A stretch of 63,848 nucleotides of DNA, counting the filler, from Licmophora abbreviata (taxonomy: Eukaryota): assembly GCA_900291995.1 (NCBI GenBank). It is 5 parts of 5 records of this genome, joined end to end, with 100 filler letters (N's around TTAATTAATTAA, not from the genome) between each part and the next. Parts side by side here need not be neighbours in the genome. Positions count along the whole stretch, not along the records: positions 38,007 to 48,078 come from OLMU01004120.1; 4 more parts are not named here. One strand, given 5' to 3'. Within the stretch, counting starts at the first letter, position 1, and every line of letters starts with the position of its first letter. The position numbers and the translations under genes are program-made. The notes beneath the pieces were generated by a model that saw only the letters and a list, made by a program, of their open reading frames with translations, ran no database searches and was not told the origin of the DNA. This document shows positions 41,377 through 49,039 of the stretch, piece by piece.

Positions 41377-44300
41377 TTATTGCGATTCTTTTCGTTTCTG
41401 CAAACGCTCCTTATGGCGAGCCAGAGCTATCTCTGATCGTCGCTGCATCGACGCAGCAGCTCCTCCGTTTTCATACCGCTGTTTCATTTTGTCCAACAGA
41501 AGCGTCTCCTTGCCCTTGAACTTATCCATTATTGTATCGATGCGGTCCACCTTCGCCTTGTCGTACTTCTCCAGCAAGGCAAGAACCTGATCGCGTATTT
41601 CAGCCACATCTTCGGGAGGAACAGGCGATGGAACTTCCGGAGAGGATTTCACATTACGTATGACCGGGGAGTTGGGCGATGCCACGGCGGTCCGCCCAGG
41701 TGTTCTCGACGTCCGATTCATTATCTGGGCAGTACGCGCACGAAGAGTCGCCGCCGACGATGCATCCTTGGCACGTCGCAGATCCTTAGAAGACTTTGCC
41801 AGAAGCGACTCTTTGTCGTCCAGCGCTCGGGACAGTTTTTCTCGTTCGCGCGTCGCCTTTGACAGCTTTTGCTGAACGACGCGGAGCTGAAGCAGCGTTC
41901 GCATCCAATGAACAGACTGTTAGTGACGAACGGTCAACATTTGTAAGCATGATAACAGGCCTCCAAACGGTCTCCTTACCTCGTCGCGACACTTTTCCAG
42001 CTCCGTAGACGCCTCTTCTCGAAGCGCCTTTTCTTTCTGCCACCGACTCGCCATTTCGGTGTTGGTCTTTCGAAGAACCTCCATGGAGCGATTCTCCGTT
42101 TGTGCTTTGGCCCGTGACTGGGAAATGTTCGCGAGTCTTTCCTGAATTCGAGTGTTGTCGCGTTTTAGGGACTGAAGCTGATGCTCAGATTTCTCTTTGG
42201 CCCTCGTCAGCTTTTTCATCTCTGATGTGAGCGACTTGACAGTCTCCTCTAGATTCTTGGACGTTACATTGCGCTGGGCGGCTCCGAGCTGGATTCTGCG
42301 TACACGCGTTGCAAACTTGAGAGCGTGGACCGACTCATCGAATGCGATGTCCATGGGACAGACTGCAACAACCATCATCGTTCTTGAATTGCCACCCAGT
42401 GCATCTTGGAGAAGATATGTGAGCTTGCTATCGCGATAAGGAACATGAGAGGCCTTCCGATCCAGGGCCTCCATAACGTTGCCCAACGCTGCAAGACTCT
42501 TATTGATATAACCGGCCTCCTTCAGTTGCTCTCCTTCGACCTTACTCTTCCTGACGCGCTCTGATCCTGCGAGGTCGACAAGATACAGAGTGCCGTTGTT
42601 TCCCGGCTGTTCGCCGATAGTGGACTTGACATCAACTGAGAGCACCATGTGCGACCGACTGCTGTGTTCGTTCAGATCGGTCGATGCCGTCGCTCGGTTC
42701 GCGTTGCCCCGCTTCAGCAGGTTCATCACATCAGTAATGCTTCCCACCGGTTCCTTCGAAAGACCCGGAACTTCTATATGACCATCCTCCGTCCTCCTGA
42801 TACTTAGCGTCGCTTTTGCCCCATTCTTTCGAGCTTCGCGTTTCTTGGCGGACGCTGTTATTCCTTCCGCAGACGACGCGAGAAGATCATACACTTCGTC
42901 GTTGTAGATTTCTAGCATTCCTAACTGTAAGGAAAAGTCGAACTCTCCTATGTCTTCCTGTCCTTCACTGCGTGCGATGATAGCCGCTGCTTTCTGCTGC
43001 TGTGCACGTAGATTCAACAAGTGGAAGATCTTCTGAATGGTGCGGTAGCTGATACCGTACTGATTGCCCTCTGGACTGCCCTCCATAGTGTAAGTCTTCC
43101 CGCTTCCACTGTAGAAGTAAGTCCACAGGAAGAGCAATGATGAGTGAGTTATCAATCGCATATACATTTCGCGAGCCTCCAATCGGAAACAAATATTGTC
43201 ATCCCAAAGCAGAACTTACGTTTGACCGTACGCGAAGATACACGCGTTGTATCCATCGACGACGCTAAGCGCAAGAGGCTCGACGTCCTGAAACACGCTA
43301 CTCTGCGATTGGTCAGGACCCCAGACCCTATCGAATCCGAAGCTCTTCCATTTGTTCGTTCGCTGGTCGTAGCATCCGATCTCGGTCTCGCTGAGCGCTT
43401 CGACAACACCTTTGTTGCCGGAATGAATCTCTGACATTCGCATGGGTCGCACGCGGCAATAAACTTGTATATTACCCTGGAGACTGAGAATCTTGCTGAG
43501 GAGCTGTGCGTTATAGTCGCGCTGCTTGTCACTCTTTTTATCGATTCTCCTCAATTCTTCGACAATCACATCCAAATCGCCGCTCTCGATTACCTCTTGC
43601 ATGTGTGACTCTCCAATATCGCGAATGTCCCCAAGCGAGTCACCTCCTTTCTCTGGACTTGCTAGGGCACTGATGCGGGACATCTGCGGCGGCACAACTG
43701 CTGCATCACTGCTCGTGCTAAAGAGTTGCGTCTGTAGCACCTGTAGATCCTCCTCGAGGCGCTTCACGCGGACCTCGCCCATTCGACTCTGGTCCTGGAG
43801 CGAATCGCACTCTTTCCGAAGAGTCTTTGCTTTCTTCTCCTCTTCCTCAACGCGATAGATGAGCCGCTGTGGTGTGGTTGGTGAGGTCGATCGAGCACGC
43901 CGACGTCGGACCGAGCGGAGTCGTCGCGAAAATGACTGAGACTCGTCGACACCTCGGATAATAGGATCAAAGTCGTCACGACTGTCGACCGACATATCGG
44001 ACATGGAGCGTTCCGATCGTCTCGATGAGACGGTTGTCTTGGGCTTTCGATGCTTTGCGTTCTGTTTTGGAATCGTCGGGGCCGCCCGATCCTTCTCGCG
44101 ACGGATGACTATCAGGTTTGCTTCCGCCTCAGCCAGCTTGCCTTTGGTGGTGGACAGCTCCTTCTCGAGCCGTGTCACGTCCGCCTCCGCTTTAGTTACC
44201 CTCCCTTCGACAGCAGTTCCTAGCTTGTTGATATCACGCTCCTTTTGTTCGAGAACATCCTTCGTTCGAGCCAGCTGTTCTTTCAGCTTCACCACAAGTT

Positions 44301-45803
44301 CGCTGTGTGCTGTGTCCGACTCTTCGTTCTGTTGGTCTCGTGTAGAAGCAATCGTTGTTTCAGCGACGTCGACCTGAGCTTGCAGATCAGAGTTCGCCTC
44401 CGATAGTGATGTCAACTTGGCCCGTAGGTCATTCATTTCCTTCTCCACTTCTGCTTTCATGGACGTACGGACGCTGTCGGCGGCTGTCTTCTCCGCTTCG
44501 CGGCGTGATTCGTCAAATCGGTCGTTGACGGCCTCCAGCTCTTCGACAAGAGCTTCTTGATCCTTCTTTCCGTTCTCCAGAGACGTTTCTAGGTTAGCAA
44601 TTTCTGTTCTCAGTCGAATCGTTTCCTCCGTAGCAGCGGCCATGGTCTTTTCCAAAGTGTCGACCTCGGCGACAGCAGTCCGTGCTTCGGTCTCTGTTTG
44701 ATCGAGCTTACTCTGCAACTGGTGGATCTCGTCTCGATGCTCTACGCGGATGCCTTCGATCCTGGCATTGAAGTGGCCAACATCTTCCAGTGAAGCCTTG
44801 AGCTCTTCCTGTGTCAATGTCAGCTCCTCTTTAAGCAACGATACCTCCTCGCGCAACTTGTGCTCCTCTCCCAAACGAGCTTCGCTCGCTTCATTGGGCT
44901 CCTGAACAACATCGGTATCGGACAAGCCTCTCTGTGTGGCCTCCTTTTCAGCGGTTGTATGTTCGTGGGTGGACTTCGCATCCGCCAGCTCCTCTTCCGT
45001 CTGAGTCAAGCGTTGTTCAGTCTCGATGAGCTGTTCCGTGACGAGCTCAAGTTCATCCTCCAAGCGTTTGACATAGTCGTCGCTGCGGCTCTCGTCGAGA
45101 GAGGGATATCCATCGTCGTTTTCGTCAACCGACGATCTAGTGCTTTCAGTCCCGCCATTCCCAATTGGCTTTGGCGAGGCGTCACGTGGCTCGGAGGTAC
45201 CATTCTGAGTCTGTCGAGACACGGCGAGATCCGACCGAAGCTCGTCCATGTCGACACGATGGCGCTCCTTTTCGACTTCCAGTTCGAGACGAGTTTCCTC
45301 TAGTTCACTCTCTTTGAAAGCAAGCTCTTCATGTGCTGCGTCGCACTCATCCTTGAGAGCGAACAAGTCCCCCTCAGCTTCGCGCAGCCGCGTTTCTGCT
45401 TCATCCTGGGCCTGCTCTGCCTGTCGCCGCAGTTTTTGTTCTCGATCCAGTTTTGCCCGAGTGTCCGTCAATGCCTGTTCCAGTGACGAAAGTTGCGGCG
45501 CAATGTTCTCGAGCTGCGATGACAAAGCGGAGTTTGCAGCAGAGCTCTCGGCGAGCTTGTCCTCTAAGATTGAAGTGAAGCGGTACAAGCGACGACAAAT
45601 GACAAAAGTGAAGAATGAGCCACCGAGTCCGGAGAAGCTCAAAAGTACTCCGTTGAGCGCAAAGCGATTCGCTACTTACGCATCTTGGATAGTTCCGCAT
45701 CCAGCTCTTCCTCTAGCTCCCGGGAAGACGCAATGTACTCATCAAAGGCGCTCTGTAGAGCTGCCAGCTCCGCCTCGCGGTCGGCAATAGACGCGCTTGC
45801 CAT
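41377..45803 (-). CDS. kinesin-14-like motor with a long N-terminal coiled coil; introns 45564-45679, 43109-43219 and 41887-41979
   Basis: Neck LQGNIQVYCRVRP, AYGQTGSGKT (split by an intron), NEHSSRSH, LVDLAGSER, HVPYRDSKLTYLLQDALGG. Confidence 0.93.
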
Positions 45804-46467: not shown

Positions 46468-47187
46468 TCATACGTAAGTTGTAGTTGGTGCAGCTGCAGT
46501 CGCTTGAGAAGCTCCGCCACGCCCGACGAGAAAACCAAATAGATTCGATCGAATGGCCGTCATGGCGCCAGCTTGCGCGCCTTGCGCCATCATTTCTTGC
46601 AACTTTTCCTTTTGATCGGAGCTGCACTTGTAGTATCCATAGACATTGGAGGCACTGAGACCAAGCGCCATGACGACTGTAATGAGCCATCCGACCTCGA
46701 ATTTGAGTATTCCAATCACGAAGAGCGCTGCCCAGATAAAAGGCGTGGCGTATAGGACAGTCCAGAAGACACTGTGATCGAACTTGTTGACCGCTCGTTC
46801 ATTGGCCGACTCAAAGATCCACTTGGTGCTGTCTCCCTCGACTTGATTCCACCATCGCAGTCCAACAAGCAACCGACCCGTGATATTCTTGACGACCCAA
46901 AAATCGGCTGCAAGGAGCAGTATGCAGATGACTGTGATGGTAATAAAGTTCGCGCCCTTCGCTTCCCCACTACCGACGAACCATCCTCCGAAAATGTACA
47001 GAAAGAGAGCACACCCCTTGAAGAGAAAGTGAAATACGCAGGCGACCGGATGGGATGAGGCGCTCAAACCAGTGGAACTGGAGGCAGAGGGGGGTCCCGA
47101 CGCAGAGGCAGACGGTTCCGTGTCCATTGAGCCCTGAAGTCCGCCACTCTTATTAGATACGTCGAACTGCAGATCAGAGGACATCAT
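46468..47187 (-). CDS. TVP23: Golgi membrane protein TVP23/FAM18 (ECHIDNA-like)
   Basis: HPVACVFHFLFK, DFWVVKNITGRLLVGLRWWN, NVYGYYKC. Confidence 0.95.
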   Translation of the reverse strand: MMSSDLQFDVSNKSGGLQGSMDTEPSASASGPPSASSSTGLSASSHPVACVFHFLFKGCALFLYIFGGWFVGSGEAKGANFITITVICILLLAADFWVVKNITGRLLVGLRWWNQVEGDSTKWIFESANERAVNKFDHSVFWTVLYATPFIWAALFVIGILKFEVGWLITVVMALGLSASNVYGYYKCSSDQKEKLQEMMAQGAQAGAMTAIRSNLFGFLVGRGGASQATAAAPTTTYV

Positions 47188-47475: not shown

Positions 47476-48078
47476 ATGAGCAGCAGCTCGACACCGTCGG
47501 GCGCCGCTGTTTCCAGTGCAGACGCTGCCTCCGTGTCCCCGATACTTTCAATGCCTGAAATGCCATGTTCTCACAAATGCCGGTCGTGTGCGGACTGCAG
47601 TTGCGGAGAAAATTGCCAGTGCACCGAAACACTCTGTCGATGTCAAGCATCGTCGATACTCAACTCACTCCAGAAGGGTCGGGAAGCGCAGTGGGACATT
47701 CAAGGAATGACTTGTAAATCCTGTGTTCGTACTGTACAGTCTGTGTTGGGAAGGGATAGTCATGTGTCCTTGTCGGAGGGAACGGCCAAAGCGGATGTCG
47801 CGAGTCGCACACACGCAGAAGACCTTACGGGAGAGCTCATGGATGTCGGCTTTCAAGCTACCCTCCTGTCGGTTTCGGAGCCACACGACTCATGCGCAAG
47901 TCCGCAGCTGCGCTTTGTTTCTGGCCCTGTGTCTCCGGCGCGGCCTTGTTCCCATACTGCGGATGTATCGCAATCTCTTTTGGATTCTCCCACATGTCGG
48001 GCCCCGGCAGAAGATCCCCTGGCACCTCCACTGCCATCCTCACCTCCCTTGACGGTAAATACGCCTGCAACGCAAACT
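47476..48078 (+). CDS. Cys-rich plus HMA-domain protein, probably the N-terminus of a Cu-transporting P1B-ATPase; truncated at the gap
   Basis: CSHKCRSCADCSCGENCQCTETLCRC followed by IQGMTCKSCV...VSL.....DVGF. Confidence 0.75.
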
Positions 48079-48178
48079 NNNNNNNNNNNNNNNNNNNNNN
48101 NNNNNNNNNNNNNNNNNNNNNNTTAATTAATTAANNNNNNNNNNNNNNNNNNNNNNNNNNNNNNNNNNNNNNNNNNNN
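48079..48178. other. artificial assembly spacer
   Basis: N44-TTAATTAATTAA-N44. Confidence 0.98.
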
Positions 48179-49039
48179 AATCATTCAGTATCAGTACGTA
48201 GGCAACTGGTAGACCAGAGGTCTTCGCGCCGGCAAGCACCGACGATGTGAACTGAGCGCGCCAGAATTCTGAGCATTCGAGAGTCGAGTCGAGTAAGTCG
48301 AGTATATCGGGATCACCCGATTGACTCAATCGACTCGACTCAATTCACACTTCAAACTCCGACACCAGCCTAGAGACTCGACCCGACCCGACCCGGCCCA
48401 CTCACACAGCCTCATTCAAGTTGCATAGTAAAAGTAGTCTAGATCCGCTCGATCATGATCTTCGTCAAAGGAGTCACGATTCTCGCTCTAGCCCAAAGTT
48501 CTTGGATGTGAGCGCCCTTGGCGGAAGTTACCGAGAGAGACAGTTGACCTTCATTGGCCTACAAGCTAGCTAGCTAACGTAACGTTGCATCACTCTTGTA
48601 TAACTACGCCGCGGCAGTGCTACAAATCAATCAAAACCTACCAACATCTTAAGAATATGCTACTACTAGATCACTGCAAGAAAAGGAGGCTCCCCTGTCA
48701 AACATACAACAACAGCAACAAGGAGAAAAAACGACCACAATCCACACAAGCAAGAAAGTAGTGAGGATTCACAATTGTACATTAATAAGAGACACATTCT
48801 TCCATCAAAAGTCTAGTTCGTTCCACGACAATCCCTCAGAAGGAAGTCAGCATGACTGTTTTCGACATGTAAGCCTTCTCGAGTATATTGTTTTTGTAGA
48901 TATGCAAGAATCCTCATTGGGCGTGAACGATGATCATCATTCTTTGTTATCAACAACGTACCATATCTTGCAGTACGCAGCAAAGACTCCCAACCCATCC
49001 TTTCTCATTATCTAAGGCAACAAGCGACAATAGTAATAA

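Follow-up and report, generated by a model that had tools for sequence, protein, structure and literature searches.

A predicted kinesin-14-type motor with a NudE/NDEL1-homologous N-terminal tail in the diatom Licmophora abbreviata

NudE proteins are free-standing scaffolds through which LIS1 reaches cytoplasmic dynein. The kinesin-14s are the other minus-end-directed microtubule motors and often work in parallel to dynein in spindles; in the kinesin-14s Ncd and HSET, a basic tail attaches to a second microtubule. Transport of LIS1, NDEL1 and dynein towards microtubule plus ends depends on kinesin-1 in neurons as well as in Aspergillus. Here we describe a kinesin gene on the minus strand of a 63,848-nucleotide stretch of DNA from Licmophora abbreviata (assembly GCA_900291995.1; the whole stretch is referred to as the window), in the part taken from record OLMU01004120.1. 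The gene is predicted to encode a 1368-residue kinesin-14-type motor with an N-terminal tail (residues 8-161) homologous to NudE/NDEL1, which would link LIS1/dynein to a kinesin. We give this reading a probability of roughly 0.6.

The diatom protein resembles NudE, NDE1 and NDEL1 (structures 2V71 and 2V66 for NDEL1, 7E1T for NDE1) over about 145 matched columns with the same start and end points, and it keeps the S-R-E-L-E acidic patch and an E..R pair 11 residues apart. Unlike these proteins, it lacks the C-terminal family PF04880 (NUDE_C), its coil is 11 residues shorter between two conserved blocks, and the positions of E36, L118, L125 and N122 are changed. It is also fused to about 1200 further residues including the motor, whereas at least 118 NudE proteins are stand-alone (253-498 residues). 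Like the kinesin-14s KIFC3, KCBP, Ncd and Kar3, it has a long coiled-coil stalk and a kinesin-14-type neck (PF16796) followed by the motor, but its tail is NudE-like and acidic (isoelectric point, pI, 4.4 over residues 1-165). As in KCBP and the plant internal-motor kinesin-14s, the motor does not stand at the extreme C-terminus, being followed by a basic extension of 263 residues (1106-1368, pI 10.1). The predicted arrangement recalls the kinesin-1 link to NudE-LIS1-dynein in that a kinesin and a NudE-LIS1 module would share cargo; there, however, the proteins are separate and the kinesin is plus-end-directed, while here a single polypeptide would carry a presumed minus-end kinesin.

No report linking NudE/NDEL1 to diatom kinesins or to kinesin-14 fusions was found in a literature search whose coverage left out most subscription journals. 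A kinesin survey that includes Thalassiosira pseudonana mentions neither NudE nor LIS1, and describes most of the diatom kinesin models it used as short (PMC1434745). The domain architecture is new, built from two known parts.

Relationship of the N-terminal coil to NudE

With the exon-2-encoded part alone as the query, the three best matches in the PDB (177,635 sequences) were NDEL1 2V66 (expectation value, E, 0.0098), NDE1 7E1T (0.07) and NDEL1 2V71 (0.08). A profile of 19 diatom N-termini (A1) placed 2V71 at the top with an E of 3.7e-5 over profile positions 10-148, the runner-up being a centriole coiled coil (0.0021). A profile of the more distant members only, from which the orthologue clade of the Licmophora kinesin was excluded (A2), again had 2V71 as its best match (E 3.9e-6, positions 11-146). 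The NDEL1 matches in the PDB cover nearly the whole crystallised coil. Pfam and NCBIfam searches with N-terminal pieces returned weak coiled-coil noise only, for example SMC and Rad50. Against 1.84 billion representative proteins, A1 gave 241 matches at E ≤ 0.001. Among the best 150 of these, 42 of the 51 new matches of at least 200 residues were scanned with Pfam, nine N-terminally cut fragments being left out, and a kinesin motor was present in 15 of the 42. Taken alone, the results from the PDB, from this protein library and from a language-model protein atlas are suggestive but open.

A bridge to annotated NudE proteins was provided by a profile of 25 family sequences (A3), scored on the 8000 candidates (74-641 residues) that share most words with it. 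At a database size of 5.8 billion, 13 candidates matched at E ≤ 10: 11 family members, P0275 (E 1.1e-4) and P0276 (E 1e-3). The last two are both annotated as PF04880, and since NUDE_C lies outside the region matched by A3, this label is independent of the match. Used as seeds, P0275 and P0276 retrieved at least 118 further NUDE_C proteins among the best 120 of 1807 matches, many of them named NudE or NudE-like by NCBI. A NudE reference set of 36 NUDE_C-bearing proteins with mutual identity below 62% was aligned over the full length (A5), and a hidden Markov model (HMM) of the N-terminal 183 columns of these 36 proteins was searched in the reverse direction. It matched residues 8-161 of the Licmophora kinesin with 26.4 bits, the next-best stretch scoring 3.2 bits. 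Across 53 family proteins of at least 1000 residues with an intact N-terminus, the N-terminus was the best match in 51 (14.1-35.6 bits, median 21.9) and the best match outside it scored 8.9 bits; reversed copies of the same 53 proteins gave no match at E ≤ 100.

Profile-profile comparison with hhalign scored A1 against the NudE N-terminal alignment at 97.5% (P 8.5e-12, 144 columns) and A2 at 98.2% (P 4e-14). With the full-length alignment A5 the values were 97.8% (E 7.3e-13) and 98.4% (E 6.1e-15), over 145 columns. When either partner was reversed, the score fell to 2-16% (P 0.0016-0.022); for seven further regions, largely coiled coil, of 23 orthologues it was 1-36% (P 3.8e-4 to 0.053). The NudE match thus exceeds both kinds of control by at least seven orders of magnitude. 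The aligned region ends alike in both families, with D-L-R-Q-E-L-A-V in fish Ndel1 (P0349) and E-L-R-S-D-L-A-V in the Licmophora kinesin, and past this shared coil end alignable similarity is lost in both.

The original prediction had called the N-terminal part NudE/NDEL1-like and collinear with NudE. The family call holds up against true NudE proteins (97.8-98.4%, controls 1-36%), a similarity well beyond that to generic coiled coils. The alignment is collinear as well, although with gaps: between the two conserved blocks NudE is longer by 11 residues, and further on it is shorter by one. On these comparisons, residues 8-161 are very probably homologous to the NudE/NDE1/NDEL1 coiled coil. Because the NUDE_C region is absent, the protein is better described as having a NudE-homology domain than as a full member of the NudE family. 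The region after the coil had no NUDE_C likeness when compared with the NudE C-terminal alignment (P 0.34-0.51), and the idea that a second conserved motif in this region is a NUDE_C remnant was rejected (P 0.34 against the same alignment).

In the primary papers, Nudel residues E36, E39, F40, E46, E48 and E52 are given as required for dynein binding via the intermediate chain (PMC3013018, Wang and Zheng), and E119A or R130A as strongly lowering LIS1 binding, with none left in the double mutant (PMC3013018; PMC3101096, Zylkiewicz et al.). The LIS1-site mutants are numbered E116A/R127A in a review (PMC9041303); the numbering of the primary papers, which fits P0349, was adopted here. Aligned to P0349, residues E22, Y23, E29, E31 and D35 of the Licmophora kinesin are the equivalents of E39, F40, E46, E48 and E52, and E91 and R102, spaced 11 residues apart, are those of E119 and R130. 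By alignment, the acidic dynein-binding patch and the LIS1-site E..R pair named in the original prediction are therefore retained: E39, E46, E48, E119 and R130 are identical, F40 is replaced by Tyr and E52 by Asp.

No variation occurs at the E48 and E119 equivalents in A1, A2 or A3; they account for two of just three invariant columns in A2 and two of just four in A3. The R130 equivalent is kept in at least 90% of A1. At the invariant columns of the N-terminal part of A5, the Licmophora kinesin is identical in 11 of 15, compared with 0-5 in 42 slid registers. Identity to the Licmophora kinesin over 23 orthologues is 71-80% in residues 1-150 and 49-88% per 50-residue window in the motor, falling to 30-55% in the stalk and 12% in the linker; the N-terminal domain is conserved as strongly as the motor. 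Binding to LIS1, to the dynein intermediate chain or to both may have been retained, an outcome we favour slightly.

Gene model, motor and neighbouring loci

The kinesin gene occupies positions 41377-45803 on the minus strand, and in-script splicing of its four exons (Table 1) gives a 1368-residue product with one terminal stop. The start ATG lies at 45803, with a TAA in the same frame 15 nucleotides upstream. Removal of intron 1 rejoins the reading frame via a split CAG codon, and splicing of intron 2 rebuilds G-Q-T-G-S-G-K-T at residue 821. Intron 1 was already placed at these positions in the original prediction; it is confirmed by its GT..AG ends and by the same spliced junction in diatom orthologues (see below), and the three peptide stretches cited there are all found in the translation.

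Table 1. Positions in the window of the exons, introns and domains of the predicted kinesin gene
Feature	Positions	Strand	Description
Exon 1	45680..45803	-	Residues 1-41 and first base of codon 42; start codon and NudE-type acidic patch F-D-E-Y ... S-S-R-E-L-E-E-E-L-D
Intron 1	45564..45679	-	116 nucleotides, GTAAGT...AG, phase 1
Exon 2	43220..45563	-	Residues 43-822; single open frame of 780 codons
Exon 2 contents	43220..45563	-	Remaining NudE-like coil, weakly conserved linker, second motif, coiled-coil stalk, basic Ser/Arg-rich stretch, neck, motor start
Intron 2	43109..43219	-	GTAAGT...AG; interrupts the P-loop codon for T823
Exon 3	41980..43108	-	Residues 824-1199; bulk of the motor and beginning of the C-terminal coiled coil
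Intron 3	41887..41979	-	GTAAGG...AG, phase 0
Exon 4	41377..41886	-	Residues 1200-1368 and TAA stop; basic C-terminal extension with conserved tail (residues 1301-1350)
Predicted NudE-homology coiled coil	45205..45782	-	Residues 8-161, intron 1 within the span; NudE N-terminal HMM match (26.4 bits), hhalign, residue mapping
Second conserved motif	45010..45081	-	About residues 203-226, D-D-Y-V-K-R-L-E-D-E-L-E-L-V-T-E-Q-L-I-E
Kinesin motor domain	42292..43455	-	About residues 745-1095, intron 2 within; kinesin-14-type neck directly upstream (N-I-Q-V-Y-C-R-V-R-P, residue 739)

The first 113 residues of exon 2 served as the query of a word-indexed search, in which 202 proteins matched at E ≤ 0.01; all counts of orthologues below refer to the 120 best of these. 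The motor family PF00225 was present in 111, PF16796 alone in four, and neither in five short fragments. The sources include Pseudo-nitzschia multistriata, Nitzschia inconspicua, Cylindrotheca fusiformis, Attheya sp. and Bacillariaceae metagenome bins, and five of the sequences are MMETSP transcripts marked complete. An equivalent of exon 1 and the K-M-Q-[E/D]-K-L junction occur in 51 of the 120, and two orthologous gene calls contain an intron-like read-through at exactly the intron-1 point, so the position of this intron is common to diatoms. In the remaining 67 gene calls exon 1 is absent and unrelated residues run up to the junction, which indicates that automated calls often miss the first exon. 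The NudE-like start is hidden in the correspondingly large number of public gene models from diatom genomes and metagenomes.

The original prediction had raised the possibility that the N-terminal part and the motor lie on separate transcripts. This is not the case in relatives, where transcript-derived diatom proteins of about 1340 residues, marked complete, hold both. The N-terminal coil and the motor are almost certainly parts of a single polypeptide.

PF00225 was matched with an E of 8e-13 at the end of exon 2 and 3.9e-81 in exon 3, and the neck family PF16796 with 2.7e-16. The motor motifs are intact, comprising the P-loop (residue 821) and the switch I/II motifs S-S-R-S-H (972) and D-L-A-G-S-E (1001). 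In the PDB, exon 3 alone matched KIFC3 first (6.9e-49) and KIF4 second. The closest full-length orthologue matched KIFC3 (3.4e-71), KCBP (7e-69 and 2.7e-66) and two Ncd chimeras (~1e-59), followed by KIF4 and kinesin-1, and its Ncd alignments reach into the neck. Judged by these best hits and by the neck family, the motor is of kinesin-14 type, in agreement with the original prediction.

Two further segments of the protein stand out from their surroundings. A basic Ser/Arg-rich stretch at 43700-44000 (minus strand; residues 561-660, pI 9.4), with the run R-R-R-R-A-R-S, lies inside the acidic stalk; possible roles are nuclear localisation signal, region regulated by phosphorylation, or second site for microtubule binding. 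The far C-terminal tail at 41380-41530 (minus strand; about residues 1301-1350) has 66% identity over 23 orthologues, the rest of the basic extension being variable, and had no match in Pfam.

Upstream of the kinesin gene, the neighbouring gene at 46471-47187 on the minus strand encodes a DUF846 membrane protein (PF05832, E 3.8e-50). A Cys-rich open frame at 47476-48078 on the plus strand has a weak match to the heavy-metal-associated domain (PF00403, E 0.0031, under the curated cut-off); the gene starting at 47476 is cut off by the N stretch at 48079-48179. In that stretch the 12-mer TTAATTAATTAA stands between two runs of N, and it was read as a scaffold gap with a stop-in-all-frames linker.

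Wider family of the N-terminal module

The NudE-like module, usually together with the second motif, heads motor and non-motor proteins alike. It occurs on at least one further kinesin clade, marked by an 8-residue insertion; on small proteins of 280-366 residues with a basic K-R-K-R-G ... W-F-R tail (P0149, P0154, P0156 and P0169); on proteins with a CaaX-like C-I-I-S or C-T-I-S end (P0147 and P0150); and on motor-less coiled-coil proteins of 1005-2348 residues (P0163, P0167, P0175, P0177, P0188 and P0192). Over its first 35 residues the module hardly differs from one carrier group to another. From this distribution, the module behaves as a portable unit in diatoms and their relatives.

The second motif, about 45 residues after the coil and past a variable linker, recurs in motor and non-motor members. 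It matched no known family.

Competing explanations and biological meaning

We hypothesize that the N-terminal coil would form a parallel dimer, as in NDEL1. By analogy with NDEL1, its acidic patch would be offered to the dynein intermediate chain and the face bearing E91 and R102 to the LIS1 beta-propellers. The motor is presumed to walk to microtubule minus ends, and would either hold the complex on microtubules or carry it in that direction. The protein would thereby tether or carry LIS1, and perhaps dynein, minus-endward, for example to spindle poles or to the nuclear surface. If this is true, two minus-end-directed motor systems are coupled within one polypeptide. According to PMC2239267, T. 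pseudonana has a gene for a canonical cytoplasmic dynein 1 heavy chain, so the partner motor is present in diatoms; Phaeodactylum tricornutum does not appear on the list, as given there, of species without dynein heavy chains.

The observations that weigh against this reading are taken up here together with the rival explanations. Generic resemblance of two acidic heptad-repeat coiled coils, with no homology between them, would be compatible with the marginal single-sequence E-values in the PDB (0.0098-0.08) and with the A2 search, in which lamin (2.6e-5) and crescentin (6.9e-5) follow about one order of magnitude behind NDEL1. The language-model protein atlas returned generic coiled-coil clusters only, all below 0.9 and without NudE, and at the nearly invariant NudE columns there is no enrichment, 8 of 25 being kept against a slid-register maximum of 8. 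Such an origin is nevertheless highly improbable given the hhalign scores of 97.5-98.4%, with P down to 6e-15 as opposed to P ≥ 3.8e-4 in the reversed and seven-region controls. It would also leave unexplained that 51 of 53 proteins match the reciprocal NudE HMM best at their N-terminus while their reversed copies do not match it, that 11 of 15 invariant positions are identical where slid registers give at most 5, that both non-family matches among the 8000 candidates carry NUDE_C, and that both coils stop at the same point and continue into disordered sequence. An error in the gene model, such that exon 1, or all of the NudE-like part, and the motor are on separate transcripts, is less probable still. 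The 67 gene calls in relatives that are without exon 1 speak for it, but unrelated residues up to the junction are what a missed 5' exon is expected to leave. Moreover, a single frame of 780 codons in exon 2 already runs from residues 43-161 of the coil into the beginning of the motor, complete transcript-derived orthologues hold both parts, the introns have canonical splice sites, and other diatoms have intron 1 at the same position.

With generic likeness and a wrong gene model now unlikely, the main alternative is re-use: the module would be genuinely homologous to NudE but would serve for (hetero-)dimerisation or for some other partner, for example by letting the kinesin pair with family members that are lipid-anchored or giant coiled coils. 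The presence of the module on non-motor proteins allows for a different partner, and the number of architectures it heads (at least two kinesin clades, the basic-tailed proteins of about 300 residues, the CaaX-like ones and the motor-less ones of 1000-2300 residues) is in line with re-use, as is the near-identity of the first 35 residues across groups, which is expected from mutual pairing. Evidence for Nde1/Ndel1 heterodimers is cited in the review PMC9041303. NUDE_C is also missing: PF04880 had no match in the four exon translations (E ≤ 10) or in 42 family members (E ≤ 0.01), and canonical NudE was not seen among the best 150 of the 241 A1 matches, where PF04880 was found in none of the 42 scanned. 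Changes at individual positions point the same way, the equivalent of E36 being Ala (A19), the core residues L118 and L125 being replaced by Ala and the invariant N122 by Gln. We consider re-use unlikely but a serious competitor. What argues against it is that the family-wide invariant positions, apart from one Leu, are the equivalents of E48 and E119, which are surface residues for the intermediate chain and LIS1 and do not belong to the pairing core, and that cytoplasmic dynein 1 is present in diatoms.

The preferred reading, a kinesin-14-type motor whose NudE-homologous tail docks LIS1/dynein, can be extended to the family, though only tentatively. The NudE coil may be a portable LIS1/dynein docking module, set on at least two kinesin-14 clades and on lipid-anchored, basic-tailed small and giant coiled-coil carriers, and it may replace canonical NudE. 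On this view the kinesin-14 fusions would work as hybrid minus-end machines, with the kinesin positioning or priming dynein, for example at the central-spindle poles of diatoms or in the nuclear movements of valve formation.

The architecture is invisible to ordinary annotation because Pfam lacks a model for the NudE coiled coil and because the first exon is so often missed. A conserved NudE-type docking coil built into a kinesin-14 points to cross-talk between the dynein and kinesin-14 systems that is direct and hard-wired, and the fusion would offer a simple handle on motor cross-talk in transformable diatoms. The motor and non-motor carriers of the module would together bear on the evolution of dynein regulation outside animals and fungi.

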